64,000 nucleotides of DNA from the NCBI GenBank assembly GCA_964559555.1, contig CAZLHM010000007.1, forward strand, positions 1,942 through 65,941, in the 5' to 3' direction. The notes under the pieces were generated by a model. It did no database searches, was not told the DNA's origin, and saw nothing but the letters and a program-made list of their open reading frames with translations. Shown here in pieces: positions 1-28,462 of the stretch. Each line of letters opens with the position of its first letter. The first letter of the stretch is position 1. This DNA comes from an uncultured Candidatus Bathyarchaeia archaeon (GTDB lineage Archaea; Thermoproteota; Bathyarchaeia; 40CM-2-53-6). The translations under genes and the position numbers were made by a program.

Positions 1-1445
1 CAGCCGAACCCCGTACGCTCTCTCTATAGATGACGATCGGAGTCGACGTGATGATCTCGAGCCCGGTCTTCGTTATCAGAGTGTTCGCGATCTCAAGGTG
101 AAGTGTTCCCATACCTGAGATAAGGTACTCGCCAGTCTCCTCGTTGATCGTGGTCACTAGATTCGGGTCTTCGATCGAAAGTCTCCTAAGCGTATCAACG
201 AGTCTCGGAAGGTCACGGCTGAACTTCGGCTCAACAGCCATTGTCACGACCGGCTCTGTGACATACTTCACCGCCTCAAAGGGGACGACATCTTTGCTTT
301 GAGAGAGCGTCTCACCAGCTCGCGCGGCATCCAGGCCCAGCAAGGCTGGAATGTTTCCAGCAGTCAGTGTGCCTACGATTTCTCGGTATGGTCCCATGAA
401 GATGCAAACCTGCTGTATTCTCTGATCTACGCGGGCTCCGAACAGATGGATCATGCTCCCTTCCTTGAGCGTACCGGAGAACAGTCGTCCCGACGCGACT
501 ACACCTGCCTGTGGATCCACGACGATGTTCGTCACCGCCATGACCGCTGGCCCGTTGTCGTCGCAGCTTATCATCCCCTGGCCGATCTCGCTGTTCAGAT
601 CTCCCTTCCAGATCTTCGGGATACGATACTTCTGTGCGACATGGGGCGGAGGCATCGCCTCAACGGCCATGTTCAGTATGGCTTCATGAAGCGGAGCTTT
701 CTCTCGGAGCTCGTCAACCTTCTCGTTCAGGTACGCGTCCACAACGTCTGAGAACTTGATGCCTTTCGTCTTGGCAACTTCAGCTGTGAATCCCCATCGA
801 TCTTTCGCGGAACCCATTGCTACGGTGTTGCCCGCGAAGCTGACACTCCACCTCTCACGATATTCAGGCTCAGCGTACAGGTTCACGAGGCGATTGAACT
901 CGGCAATGATGCGTGAGATTCTCTCTTGCACCTGTTCCGGGGAGAGCCGTAACTCCTTGATCAGCCTGTCGATCTTGTTGATGTAAAGAACTGGACGGAC
1001 CCTGTCTTCAAGAGCTTGCCTCGTCACCGTTTCAGTCTGAACCATTATCTCCTCAACCGAATCGACCACCACGACAGCGCCATCGATAGCTCGGATTGAC
1101 CGGGTTACTCGCCCAGAGAAATCAACGTGACCTGGGGTATCGATGAGATTGATCACGAATGGTTTCCCTTCGCGCTCGTGTAGGAGGCTGACGTTGGCGG
1201 CTTTGATCGTCATCTGGCGTTTCTGCTCTTCCTCCATGTAGTCAAGCGCTAGCGCTGTTCCTGCGACGGAGGGAGACAAGAGACCAGCAGCAGCTAGAAG
1301 GGAATCGCTCATCGTCGTCTTCCCGTGGTCGACGTGCGCGATGATCCCGATATATTCCGGGCTAGGCTGAGGCCTACGCCTTTCGGATCTGGTCCTTGTT
1401 CTCGATGATCTTCATGATCTCCGTTGTGGTCTTATACCGAGGCAT
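1..1445 (-). CDS. fusA: Translation elongation factor 2 (aEF-2), 5' part. The gene runs off the left edge and its reading frame is interrupted by a 28-nt intervening sequence at 1354..1381 (exon 1 = 1382..1445, exon 2 = <1..1353).
   Basis: My own minus-strand translation. Exon 1 gives MPRYKTTTEIMKIIENKDQIR. The downstream frame gives IGIIAHVDHGKTTMSDSLLAAAG, LIDTPGHVDFSGRV, YINKIDRL and later GMGTLHLEI, which are the G1/G3/G4 motifs and overall order of archaeal EF-2. A GGAG Shine-Dalgarno-like element lies about 8 nt upstream of the ATG at 1445. The ORF is absent from the supplied track because it is open at the window edge and split between frames. Confidence 0.9.
1354..1381 (-). other. Candidate bulge-helix-bulge (BHB) mini-intron inside the aEF-2 coding sequence (28 nt, RNA 5'-AGGCGUAGGCCUCAGCCUAGCCCGGAAU-3').
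   Basis: The central 4-bp helix is UCCG (1387..1384) paired with CGGA (1359..1356). It is flanked by 3-nt bulges AAA (1383..1381) and AUA (1355..1353). The intron-side helix is GGC (1380..1378) paired with GCC (1362..1360), followed by an AGGC-CUCA-GCCU hairpin (1375..1364). Cleavage after the second nucleotide of each bulge removes exactly 28 nt and restores ...QIRNIGIIAHVDHGKTT.... The unspliced frame stops at UAG 1376..1374. Confidence 0.6.
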
Positions 1446-1497
1446 TTCGTTCTCCTATCTTCGTTCGCGAAAGTGGGCTGCAGACCCTTTAGACGCC

Positions 1498-1504
1498 TTT
1501 TATA
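1498..1504. promoter_or_regulatory. TATA-box-like element (TTTTATA) in the divergent aEF-2/FEN1 spacer.
   Basis: This is the only A/T-rich TATA-like heptamer in the 150-nt spacer. It lies about 55 nt upstream of the EF-2 ATG and about 50-95 nt upstream of the candidate FEN1 starts. Confidence 0.3.
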
Positions 1505-1595
1505 CTTTTCCAGCTCCGATCGATTCCAGAGAAGACTTAGAACACACTACATGAATTCTCTGAGCGAATCACGGACGCATGCAAGGGTCAACGGT

Positions 1596-4293: not shown

Positions 4294-4992
4294 ATGCGAG
4301 CTTGCGTACTCTTCAGTGGGGGCAAAGACAGCACATACGCTTTGTGGCTGGCATTGCATCAGGCGTACGACGTAGTCCGGCTCCTGACGGTCGTTCCCGA
4401 GAGGAGCGACTCCTGGATGTTCCATCACCCAGGGGTGGAGTGGGTTAGTCTTCACGCTGAGGCTTTGAAGATCCCACTGGCAACCACTAAGGCGTCAGGT
4501 GTCAAGGAACAAGAGTTGGGCGCGCTTCGAATCTCACTTTCGGAGCTCGTTGCTTCACATGGCATTGAGTGTGTCGTCACAGGTGCCATAGCGAGCGAGT
4601 ATCAGAGGTCCAGAATCGATCGCATCTGTGACGAAGTCGGCGTTCGATCCTTCGCCCCGTTGTGGGGAAGAGACCCTGAGGATTTGCTTCGGGAGGAGGT
4701 CGAGATGGGATTCGAGTTCATCATAACAGCATGTATGGCGATGGGTCTTGATTCAAGTTGGCTCGGGCGCATCATCGATCAGGCTGCGCTGGACGAACTG
4801 GGAGATATCGGCAAGAAGTACCGGATCAATCTCGCCTTTGAGGGAGGAGAGGCTGAGACCTTCGTGATCGACGGGCCAATCTTCGCGAAGAGGATTCGAA
4901 TCACTGACGCCCAACCGGTCTGGAAAGGAGAGTCAGGGTATCTCAACATCGCGCGAGCCTGTCTCGAAGAGAAGACGCTCAGGAACAACTAG
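4294..4992 (+). CDS. PP-loop ATP pyrophosphatase of the MJ0570 / diphthine-ammonia ligase (Dph6-like) family.
   Basis: The N-terminal CVLFSGGKDSTYAL is an SGGKDS PP-loop. The ~230-aa size and overall pattern match the archaeal MJ0570 family. Confidence 0.7.
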   Translation: MRACVLFSGGKDSTYALWLALHQAYDVVRLLTVVPERSDSWMFHHPGVEWVSLHAEALKIPLATTKASGVKEQELGALRISLSELVASHGIECVVTGAIASEYQRSRIDRICDEVGVRSFAPLWGRDPEDLLREEVEMGFEFIITACMAMGLDSSWLGRIIDQAALDELGDIGKKYRINLAFEGGEAETFVIDGPIFAKRIRITDAQPVWKGESGYLNIARACLEEKTLRNN

Positions 4993-26805: not shown

Positions 26806-27795
26806 ATGCCCTCACTGGTTCTTGGCATCGAGTCCACAGCACACACCTTTGGCGCGAGCATTGCGAGTACTGACGAGCGAATCCTTTCGGACTCGAAGCG
26901 TGTCTATATTCCCCCTGCGGGGCATGGAATCCATCCTAGGGAAGCAGCACAACACCATTCATCCCTAGCTGATGCGGTCATTCGGGACGCATTCGCTCAG
27001 GCGAGGATTCACCCAAAGGATCTTGATGCTGTGGCAGTAGCCCTGGGACCTGGCCTTGGGCCAACACTGCGAATCGGAGTAACGCTTGCAAGGGCGATCG
27101 CTTGGAAGTTACAGATTCCAATGATTCCGGTTCATCACGCGATCGGTCACATAGAGATAGGAGCACTAACGACTGGTTCGCACGATCCTCTTGTGGTATT
27201 GCTTTCTGGAGGCCACACGACGATCGCTGCGTTCGCGAACCGGAAGTGGAGAGTCTACGGCGAGACAGAAGACATCACGCTTGGTAATCTTCTCGACATG
27301 TTCGCGCGATCGGCTGGGCTGGAATCGCCTGGAGGACCAGAGATCGAGCGGCTTGCGCTGAAAGGCAAGAGCTTCATTGAACTTCCCTATACCGTGAAGG
27401 GAAACGATGTCTCATACTCGGGCCTGCTTACAGCCGCAACGAAACTCTTTCAATCGGGCAAGGGGATCGAGGATCTCTGCCTTTCTCTACAAGAAGTCTC
27501 CTTTTCCATGCTGGCAGAAGCAGCAGAGAGGAGCTTGGCCCACACTGAGAAGAAGGAGATACTTCTAGTGGGAGGTGTTGCTTCCAACACAGCTCTACGA
27601 AAGAAGCTCGAGATTGTGTCAAGTGAACACGGGGCGCTTCTCAGAGCAGTTCATCCGAAATACGCTGGTGACTGCGGTGCCCAGATCTCGTGGACAGGTG
27701 CCCTAGCTCTTGGACACAGAGTGTTTGTCGACATCGAGCGAAGCGAGGTCAAGCCTCGCTGGAGAATCGATGACGTGGACGTGCCCTGGAGGTGA
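26806..27795 (+). CDS. kae1: Kae1, tRNA N6-adenosine threonylcarbamoyltransferase (KEOPS catalytic subunit).
   Basis: Motifs LGIESTAHTFGASI, VHHAIGHIE, LLSGGHT and LVGGVASN are present. Confidence 0.92.
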   Translation: MPSLVLGIESTAHTFGASIASTDERILSDSKRVYIPPAGHGIHPREAAQHHSSLADAVIRDAFAQARIHPKDLDAVAVALGPGLGPTLRIGVTLARAIAWKLQIPMIPVHHAIGHIEIGALTTGSHDPLVVLLSGGHTTIAAFANRKWRVYGETEDITLGNLLDMFARSAGLESPGGPEIERLALKGKSFIELPYTVKGNDVSYSGLLTAATKLFQSGKGIEDLCLSLQEVSFSMLAEAAERSLAHTEKKEILLVGGVASNTALRKKLEIVSSEHGALLRAVHPKYAGDCGAQISWTGALALGHRVFVDIERSEVKPRWRIDDVDVPWR

Positions 27796-28462
27796 TGGTG
27801 GTCTGCTGATACGAAAAGGCGCGGAGGCCAGTATATTCTTGGAGGAGTGGTACGGCAGGCAGGTCGTAATGAAGACTCGTCTGCCAAAGTCGTACAGAGT
27901 CGGCCCCCTCGACGCTTCGATCAGGTTCGCTAGGACATCACGAGAGGCCAACCTGCTCCACGACTCGAAACGAGCAGGTGTGCCAACTCCAACCGTATAC
28001 GAGGTTGACAGAAGCACCTGCACTATCGCAATGGAATATGTGAATGGGCCGCGTCTTAAAGAGGCGTTGTCGACCATGAAGGCGCCTGAGGTCCGAAGAA
28101 CCGTTTTGATGGTGGGATCGCTGATTGGTCGACTGCACAAAGGAGGCATCGTTCACGGCGACCTTACTACATCAAACATGATCCTCCGAGACGGAGCGAA
28201 GCTCTTCTTCATAGACTTTGGACTTGGAGACTATTCATCCGAGTTGGAAGCGAGAGGAGTAGACCTTCTGCTAATGAGCAGAGCCTTCAAGAGCACGCAT
28301 TTCGCAATATACTCGAAGGCATTCAAGGACGTCCTTGCCGGCTATAGTGAAGTAATCGGACCGAGCGATACACAACTGGCTCTCAAGAAGATGCGCGAGA
28401 TCGAAATCCGAGGGAGATACAGTGAGAGGTCTCAGACGGGTTTACTTCCTGACTTCAAATAG
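27770..28462 (+). CDS. bud32: Bud32/PRPK atypical kinase (KEOPS subunit).
   Basis: Motifs LIRKGAEASIF, VVMKTR.PKSYR, IVHGDLTTSNMI and FIDFGL are present. The start at ATG 27770 overlaps kae1 by 26 nt, whereas the track ORF starts at 27710. Confidence 0.85.
   Translation: MTWTCPGGDGGLLIRKGAEASIFLEEWYGRQVVMKTRLPKSYRVGPLDASIRFARTSREANLLHDSKRAGVPTPTVYEVDRSTCTIAMEYVNGPRLKEALSTMKAPEVRRTVLMVGSLIGRLHKGGIVHGDLTTSNMILRDGAKLFFIDFGLGDYSSELEARGVDLLLMSRAFKSTHFAIYSKAFKDVLAGYSEVIGPSDTQLALKKMREIEIRGRYSERSQTGLLPDFK

Follow-up and report, generated by a model that had tools for sequence, protein, structure and literature searches.

A probable bulge-helix-bulge mini-intron in the elongation factor 2 gene of Bathyarchaeia

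Results

Interruption of the EF-2 reading frame

The stretch of DNA analysed here (the window) comprises 64,000 nucleotides of contig CAZLHM010000007.1 (positions 1,942 to 65,941; assembly GCA_964559555.1) from an uncultured Candidatus Bathyarchaeia archaeon. At its start it carries, on the minus strand, the gene for archaeal elongation factor 2 (aEF-2 or EF-2), divided by a 28-nt insert that is very probably a bulge-helix-bulge (BHB) intron. The ATG at 1445..1443 opens an EF-2 N-terminus, MPRYKTTTEIMKIIENKDQIR, and its frame reads MPRYKTTTEIMKIIENKDQIRKA before terminating at TAG 1376..1374. The rest of EF-2, from IGIIAHVDHGKTT through DTPGHVDF and NKIDR onward, lies in another frame, which adjacent to exon 1 reads ...RSERRRPQPSPEYIGIIAHVDHGKTTMSDS... 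and stays open to the window edge. Because this downstream frame contains no ATG, GTG or TTG from its upstream stop to the P-loop, the longest conventional open reading frame (ORF) begins at Met 1312, beyond the P-loop. Deleting the 28 nt from 1381 to 1354 fuses CGA-A with AU-AUC to give IRNIGIIAHVDHGKTT, and the in-silico product across the junction is ...DQIRN-IGIIAHVDHGKTT, also written ...DQIRNIGIIAHVDHGKTT. Exon 2 is 100% identical to the EF-2 gene call P0001 (694 aa), and a protein search with the spliced EF-2 places the organism in Bathyarchaeia. A preliminary description of this DNA had set out the two frames, the stop and the 28-nt deletion, and all of its coordinates and sequence statements hold on re-translation. 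The features of the locus are collected in Table 1; the stretch with the putative expression signals (1452..1510, minus strand) is unchanged in three other assemblies.

Table 1. Coordinates of the EF-2 exons, the putative intron and its predicted structural elements in the window
Feature	Position	Strand	Remarks
Exon 1 of aEF-2	1382..1445	-	ATG 1445..1443 to codon 21 (CGA, Arg) plus A1382, base 1 of Asn-22; from translation
Putative intron, 28 nt, AGGCGUAGGCCUCAGCCUAGCCCGGAAU	1354..1381	-	Removal would give ...KDQIRNIGIIAHVDHGKTT; identical in three other assemblies
Exon 2 of aEF-2	1..1353	-	Begins with AU, completing Asn-22; then IGIIAHVDHGKTT...DTPGHVDF...NKIDR; leaves the window at position 1
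In-frame UAG inside the putative intron	1374..1376	-	Third codon after Arg-21; unspliced RNA would yield 23 residues
Central helix H, 5' strand UCCG	1384..1387	-	In exon 1; pairs with 1359..1356 in minimum-energy and centroid folds
Central helix H, 3' strand CGGA	1356..1359	-	In the intron; from folds, covariation and RNAalifold
5' bulge AAA, 3 nt	1381..1383	-	Predicted 5' splice site between 1382 and 1381
3' bulge AUA, 3 nt	1353..1355	-	Predicted 3' splice site between 1354 and 1353
Intron helix h'	1360..1380	-	GGC 1380..1378 pairs with GCC 1362..1360; G1377 bulged
Capping hairpin of h', 5 bp	UAGGC 1376..1372 with GCCUA 1367..1363	-	Loop CUCA 1371..1368
Candidate TATA-like box TATAAAA	1504..1498	-	Purine-rich stretch before the box; from reading of the sequence
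Candidate GGAG ahead of the EF-2 ATG	1455..1452	-	Putative; AGGAG conserved in close relatives

Gene callers read such loci differently, and their output raises the possibility that nothing is joined at all. EF-2 would then start internally, at Met-36 or, in some clades, at a Met before GIIAH, with the 23-residue upstream ORF serving as a leader peptide, and its N-terminus would be MSDSLL or MGIIAH, whereas splicing would give MPRYK...IRNIGIIAH. The called proteins of 694 aa and 706 aa are exactly such ORFs, and the clade of loci L006 to L011 has an AUG immediately before GIIAHVDHGKTT. In the window clade and most others, however, AUC, AUU or AUA precedes GIIAH, and the first start lies beyond the P-loop; a translational GTPase without a P-loop would be inactive. 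Moreover, exon 1 encodes a normal aEF-2 N-terminus, fused to the rest of the protein in intron-less relatives, and is under purifying selection (see below). We therefore regard an internal start as extremely unlikely.

Predicted structure of the insert

The 71-nt region around the insert was folded with ViennaRNA, and minimum-energy and centroid structures were taken. The predicted RNA contains a 4-bp central helix, two opposed 3-nt bulges and an intron-side helix of at least two Watson-Crick pairs, and cutting after base 2 of each bulge gives, in silico, the conserved EF-2 sequence. In pre-tRNA, bases 32-35 form the BHB helix with the intron, and cleavage likewise follows base 2 of either bulge. 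The bulges of the EF-2 insert are located 3' of their respective central-helix strands, which is the natural BHB geometry, and the same layout is found in 35/35 genome-derived loci (described below). The 5' bulge in these sequences is AAA in 31, UAA in 2 and AAU in 2, and the third base of the 3' bulge, which is base 2 of the Asn codon, is A in every locus. On the exon side the 3' bulge is closed by a single A-U pair only. The motif is thus a relaxed (HBh'-like) BHB, as is usual for cbf5.

The preliminary description had proposed the UCCG/CGGA helix, the AAA and AUA bulges and the GGC/GCC helix, and these were borne out, with the first helix, the AAA bulge and the GGC/GCC pairing present in both folds. 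Its AGGC-CUCA-GCCU capping hairpin was right in the CUCA loop but not in the 4-bp length, as the fold gives 5 bp. Cutting after the second nucleotide of each bulge does excise exactly 28 nt, as it had stated, and this is the canonical position. The minimum-energy fold also offered an exon-side register with a 5-nt 3' bulge; this was rejected, as its pairing partner falls on a third codon position that varies freely in the alignments and is not conserved.

Replication across assemblies and relatives

The 694-residue gene-caller product of the window locus occurs on six contigs, and the 28-mer with its flanks is identical in the three independent assemblies examined (two JGI metagenomes and one ENA assembly), which rules out the assembly indel that the preliminary description had named as a possible source of the insert. 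Samples that contain this organism include JGI 3300010324, JGI 3300022551 and ENA ERZ27245483. The sole difference in a 220-nt stretch is at codon 18 (1392-1394), where the window has GAC (Asp) and three other assemblies have AGT (Ser).

Among the best 120 EF-2 proteins, roughly 95 are N-terminally short gene calls of 693-706 aa that cover 88-95% of the query. EF-2 homologues without the intron measure 728-730 aa, and many of the calls on intron-bearing loci lack the P-loop. EF-2 loci were then taken from 80 species-level reference genomes related by EF-2. An insert stands at exactly the same codon in 34 of the 80, and all 34 either bear the label Bathyarchaeia/Bathyarchaeota or group with Bathyarchaeia in the EF-2 tree; the insert is missing from every genome of the 80 that lies outside Bathyarchaeia. 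Retrieval of metagenome contigs with a pattern built from the conserved insert boundaries added 113 JGI contigs with 73 distinct intron interiors, 58 of them new. Homologous introns are thus found at the same site in 147 loci besides the window, or 148 in total.

In a neighbour-joining EF-2 tree the intron fills one large Bathyarchaeia clade and occurs also in the deeper branches L044/L048/L053/L054 and L051, whose proteins are 67-73% identical to that of the window. Several other Bathyarchaeia clades lack it, as does L010, a locus nested inside the intron clade. This patchy distribution suggests an old gain followed by several losses, judging from the EF-2 tree; repeated gain at the one site, instead of old gain and loss, is also conceivable.

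Some individual contigs deserve mention. Two of the 34 insert-bearing contigs, L006 (DATIYC010000210.1) and L007 (DATKOK010000147.1), were binned into bacterial metagenome-assembled genomes (MAGs). Proteins P0019, P0023 and P0037 come from such archaeal EF-2 contigs in bacteria-labelled MAGs, the labels being Acidiferrales, Methylomirabilota and Saccharimonadales; mis-binning is the most likely explanation. P0140, alone among the ORF calls, continues across an insert and was rejected as a counter-example: its source, L081:1480-1660 (ENA ERZ25039509 contig_189555), has AAG instead of AAAG at the 5' bulge, looks indel-prone and has both FEN1 and EF-2 broken by frameshifts.

Insert lengths, exact restoration of EF-2 and a fixed stop codon

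The 148 loci contain 96 distinct introns of 26-44 nt, with lengths in phases 0, 1 and 2 in 38, 30 and 37 cases, respectively. In all 148, a cut after base 2 of each bulge yields an ORF with an in-frame start that reads ...[I/V]RN[I/M]GIIAH[V/I]DHGKTT. No rule of frameshifting can restore EF-2 from lengths spread over all three phases; the conserved protein is recovered by excision at the BHB positions only, whatever the intron length or phase. The preliminary description had asked whether orthologues might carry an in-frame insertion or a simple frameshift here, and both are contradicted by the spread of lengths and phases and by the stop codons that every insert contains.

An in-frame stop is present in every distinct intron (96/96), compared with 28% of composition-matched shuffles. 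It stands at the third codon after the Arg in 90 of the 96 (TAG 78, TAA 8, TGA 4) compared with 4.4% of shuffles, counts in which the sequences are phylogenetically related and not independent events. The conserved stop is the second codon that lies wholly inside the intron, and it keeps its place despite lying in a co-varying helix. That TAG, TAA and TGA replace one another at a single position suggests selection for a stop codon of whichever kind. Such a fixed stop suggests, on this comparative evidence, selection against translating unspliced RNA, and it may limit that translation.

These data bear directly on translational recoding, in which the RNA would never be cut and the ribosome would shift frame or, in the manner of phage T4 gene 60, bypass the insert. 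The window insert, with its 3n+1 length and with a stop and hairpin soon after the break, does superficially resemble a bypass site. Against this, the lengths occupy all three phases (38/30/37), and the inserts of 3n length still hold in-frame stops. The conserved IRNIG is not obtained from any matched pair of take-off and landing codons: take-off at AUC with landing at AUC 1351 would drop three conserved residues (R, N and one I), and one clade has AUG as its landing codon. Finally, the part that is conserved and co-varies is the endonuclease recognition motif, namely the 4-bp helix with two 3-nt bulges. Recoding is, in our judgement, very improbable.

Covariation of the BHB helices

For the analysis of covariation, sequences were placed in a register-anchored alignment (exon flank, H, bulge, the first and last four bases of the intron interior, H and bulge). 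The genome-derived set of 35 sequences, 29 of them distinct, was chosen without any structural pattern. In the 29 distinct sequences pairing of the central helix is complete (100% of cells), with a CG-to-UA double change in L051 (UUCG/CGAG) and a change from U-A to U-G in three sequences. The first four pairs of h' are 93% paired in the genome set, and up to 94.5% with the metagenome sequences, with compensatory changes in three of the four pairs (AU/GC; CG/UA/GC; GC/CG/UA). The covariation score of 0.301 compares with 0.138 ± 0.015 in shuffles, 0 of 500 of which reach it, so the BHB pairs do co-vary among relatives, a point that the preliminary description had named as a check. Sliding the partners by 1-3 columns lowers pairing from 88% to 17-52%, and the slid registers score far lower.

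The set enlarged with metagenome sequences (64 distinct rows) gives the same covariation picture; for the metagenome subset, pairing in H and in the closing G-C pair carries no weight, since the pattern used for retrieval had already required both. From 18 complete sequences, all of the 29-nt class, RNAalifold, which received no prior structure, returned ((((...((((((((......)))))))))))), that is, H, the bulge and h'; of the 12 pairs predicted, 8 show compensatory changes. The helix on the exon side is weak throughout, with 64% of cells paired and an invariant mismatch. Its first pair changes from A-U to G-C in three distinct sequences, including L014 and L051, by way of Ile-to-Val and AAU-to-AAC changes.

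Purifying selection on both exons

Omega was obtained from pairwise Nei-Gojobori-type counts over 21 codons of exon 1 (97 distinct sequences) and 200 codons of exon 2. For exon 1, in which most changes are synonymous, it is 0.27 in its own frame and ~1.5 in the other two, and for exon 2 it is 0.15 and 1.7-2.7, respectively. Two selected coding segments held apart by spacers of variable phase require precise joining.

It could still be asked whether the interruption is an artefact of sequencing or assembly, or whether this copy is a pseudogene with a functional EF-2 elsewhere. Some Bathyarchaeota do have EF-2 paralogues (Narrowe et al., 2018), and one long-read contig has indels in this region. 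The insert, however, is identical in three independent assemblies and, counting the window itself, an insert is present in 148 loci from many studies and assemblers. The downstream ORF of ~694 codons is intact and 100% conserved, and the strong purifying selection on both exons contradicts the decaying pseudogene that the preliminary description had considered. There is, in our view, next to no chance that error or decay accounts for the interruption.

Other insertions in Bathyarchaeia EF-2

A different insertion was found in L012 (JAVZFM010000049.1), from the hot-spring Bathyarchaeia MAG DRTY-6_201803_bins_58. This genome lacks the intron at the first site, where its Arg codon is AGG, and has instead a 42-nt in-frame insert with two stops between IIAH and VDHGK (L012:248-289), 21 nt downstream of the intron site of the window. 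In the predicted fold of the insert (z = -3.96), GCCC and GGGC form the central helix, the bulges are AUA and AGG, and the intron helix has 11 bp; cutting after the second bulge base gives IIAHVDHGKTT exactly. From its sequence and fold we take it to be a second, independent BHB intron with a canonical central helix, bulges and intron-side helix. As such, it supports a splicing endonuclease acting on mRNAs in Bathyarchaeia and suggests that the phenomenon is not bound to one sequence.

In L013, L041, L042, L046 and L047 (about 1-1500 in each) the P-loop is split between GK and TT by an intein ending VVHN/T. The L041:1-1515 intein matches Pfam Intein_splicing and LAGLIDADG_3, and these Bathyarchaeia EF-2 inteins with a LAGLIDADG domain lie 11 codons downstream of the intron site of the window. 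Two BHB intron sites and one intein site thus fall within ~13 codons of EF-2. The 28-nt insert of the window is itself not an intein, being too short and carrying a stop codon.

The rest of the window

A window-wide scan for BHB motifs that fuse ORFs gave thousands of chance motifs and no convincing second intron; its filter also dropped the EF-2 case, as the intron there leaves the downstream frame open. Pfam analysis of 60 window ORFs (all but the last 3) found no truncated N-terminal domain hinting at another intron. Over positions 1-64000, no tRNA gene was found by ARAGORN, and nothing reached the gathering score of an Rfam family. Some 450 kb of related loci (44 of them) gave two ARAGORN calls only, one with an odd 4-base anticodon (L152:5118-5212). 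With almost no tRNAs found by these programs, nothing follows on tRNA introns in this lineage; tRNA genes may be sparse here or disrupted in ways that ARAGORN and Rfam miss.

About 3 kb from EF-2 lies a diphthamide synthase gene (4294-4989, plus strand; Dph6-type, Pfam Diphthami_syn_2), whose modification target is EF-2, and FEN1 and an ATP-dependent DNA ligase stand between the two. The same neighbourhood is found in L117. When 1.2 Mb of related DNA was searched by tblastn with an M. jannaschii EndA query, only weak matches were obtained and none was retained, the one inspected, in L117, lying inside the DNA ligase gene. Further along the window, a Kae1/TsaD-like ORF (26806-27792, plus strand) overlaps a Bud32/RIO-type kinase ORF (27710-28459, plus strand) by ~85 nt in different frames, an overlap delimited by the first possible start codon, which may be mis-chosen. 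Kae1 and Bud32 are fused in some archaea.

Discussion

We consider it highly probable, from the comparison of related sequences, that the 28-nt insert is a BHB intron spliced from EF-2 mRNA, and the interpretation of the preliminary description, a BHB mini-intron in aEF-2, is supported by its relatives. The interruption of the gene, the conservation and covariation of the insert, the exact restoration of the protein and the selection on both exons are established. The identity of the enzymes, the actual cleavage and any regulatory role are what we infer, and the following steps could account for the data. The transcript would fold so that UCCG of exon 1 pairs with CGGA of the intron; two opposed bulges of 3 nt would flank this central helix, and the co-varying hairpin would close it towards the intron. 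The tRNA-splicing endonuclease EndA would cut after the second bulge bases, between 1382 and 1381 and between 1354 and 1353. An RtcB-type ligase would then join the exons, creating the Asn-22 codon from A and AU, and the 28-mer would be released, probably as a circle. The spliced RNA would join ...GAUCCGAA to AUAUCGGG and, likewise, ...CAGAUCCGAA to AUAUCGGGAUC, and the junction peptide NIGIIAHVDHGK, preceded by ...DQIR, would be encodable by spliced mRNA only. Only this mRNA would encode the 729-residue EF-2 with its P-loop, and unspliced RNA would give a 23-residue peptide ending at the conserved stop.

Several observations weigh against this interpretation. First, the exon-side helix consists of an A-U pair, a mismatch and an A-U pair, as the preliminary description had recognised in calling the form relaxed. 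The strict hBHBh' definition asks for at least two Watson-Crick pairs in this helix (PMC7714728), and the two pairs here are not consecutive, so cleavage would require an enzyme of relaxed specificity. Second, the single 71-nt fold is no more stable than shuffles (z = -0.23), and the case must therefore rest on comparison with relatives. Third, the BHB begins only 59 nt after the start of the coding sequence and would have to survive translating ribosomes. Fourth, searches for the spliced product in collections that are essentially DNA-derived were negative: the 113-residue spliced N-terminus had no full-coverage match above 87% identity among proteins, the matches being intron-less lineages, and the exact spliced junction of the window clade had 0 matches in metagenome contigs. 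Finally, no EndA or RtcB domain was found by Pfam in the 60 window ORFs.

The insert might also be taken out of the RNA without EndA and RtcB, for example by another endonuclease or a self-cleaving element. The weakness of the exon-side helix relative to strict BHB substrates leaves some room for this. The geometry, however, is that of natural BHBs, and since the required cuts coincide with the canonical positions in 148 of 148 loci, other machinery is unnecessary. Group I and group II ribozymes, moreover, do not fit into 26-44 nt, and Rfam gives no known RNA family here. Removal by such other means appears very improbable. The literature places the (alpha-beta)2 endonuclease, which has broad specificity, chiefly in the TACK archaea, to which Bathyarchaeota belong.

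According to reviews and primary papers, the cbf5 intron of Crenarchaeota is the sole BHB intron in an archaeal coding sequence, and more probably await discovery; the preliminary description's statement that such introns are known essentially for cbf5 only agrees with reviews from 2020 and 2023. We found no report of an EF-2 intron in the literature on Bathyarchaeota, archaeal pre-mRNA and BHB introns, papers beyond the searchable library not excluded, and a detailed study of archaeal EF-2 evolution does not mention one (Narrowe et al., 2018). The cbf5 introns of Desulfurococcales and Sulfolobales (Watanabe, 2002; Yoshinari, 2006; Yokobori, 2009, PMC2738675) resemble the present case in being short, of BHB type and within a protein-coding sequence. 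Their motif is often relaxed, their hosts belong to a TACK lineage with a hetero-oligomeric endonuclease, their distribution is patchy with lineage-specific loss, and annotation routinely misses or mis-calls them. The differences are that the host is EF-2 and not a pseudouridine synthase, that the lineage is Bathyarchaeia, that the insertion point, immediately ahead of the P-loop, is 64 nt from the start of the coding sequence, and that there is a position-fixed stop and, in one relative, a second intron site. Splicing of cbf5 has been experimentally demonstrated, whereas that of EF-2 is predicted from sequence. The mechanism class is thus shared with cbf5; the host gene, the lineage, the comparative scale and the conserved intronic stop are new.

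A BHB intron in a 5' untranslated region is known from HVO_1309 of Haloferax volcanii (Schwarz et al., 2020, PMC7714728), which is likewise an mRNA substrate of an archaeal splicing endonuclease, with an excised piece of 46 nt (PMC7714728). That intron, however, is in an untranslated leader, interrupts no frame, is cut by the enzyme of a halophilic euryarchaeon and has been verified in vitro and by circRNA-seq. The BHB introns of archaeal tRNA and rRNA share the 4-bp helix, the two 3-nt bulges and cleavage behind base 2 of each bulge, and they are of similar size (11-175 nt in archaeal tRNA). Their hosts are stable RNAs whose mature fold helps to present the motif, whereas the EF-2 motif must form in a translated mRNA with a codon-constrained exon side.

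The splicing of XBP1/HAC1 by IRE1 and RtcB is similar in that a protein endonuclease removes a very short mRNA intron without a spliceosome, RtcB-type ligation follows and the frame is changed. The XBP1 intron is 26 nt. IRE1, however, recognises twin stem-loops and acts as a stress-regulated switch, and the EF-2 motif is a BHB. An IRE1-type intron was rejected for EF-2, as the splice sites of such introns lie in the 7-nt loops of twin stem-loops and those of EF-2 in 3-nt bulges flanking one helix.

More tentatively, the EF-2 intron could be, instead of an idle remnant, the visible part of a wider, functional BHB splicing of Bathyarchaeia mRNAs that gates EF-2 synthesis by the tRNA-splicing endonuclease and ligase, the stop being a fail-safe or the end of a leader peptide, and further essential genes could contain unannotated mini-introns. 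The second, independent BHB site in EF-2 and the systematic hiding of such introns by gene callers prompt this suggestion, which we think doubtful as a whole. If true, elongation capacity would be tied to RNA-processing capacity, much as XBP1/HAC1 splicing gates the stress response.

In summary, to the one coding and one 5'-UTR example of endonuclease-dependent archaeal mRNA splicing in reviews to 2023-2025, the putative EF-2 intron would add an essential, highly expressed translation factor, a globally abundant lineage and ~96 natural variants of a minimal BHB substrate. Automatic annotation truncates EF-2 at these loci (693-706 aa, many without the P-loop), which matters where EF-2 is used as a phylogenetic or completeness marker, and further mini-introns could be hidden from annotation likewise. 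The intron also raises the question of how a BHB forms inside a translated message. If it is real, production of the ribosomal translocase in these Bathyarchaeia would depend on the tRNA-splicing machinery.

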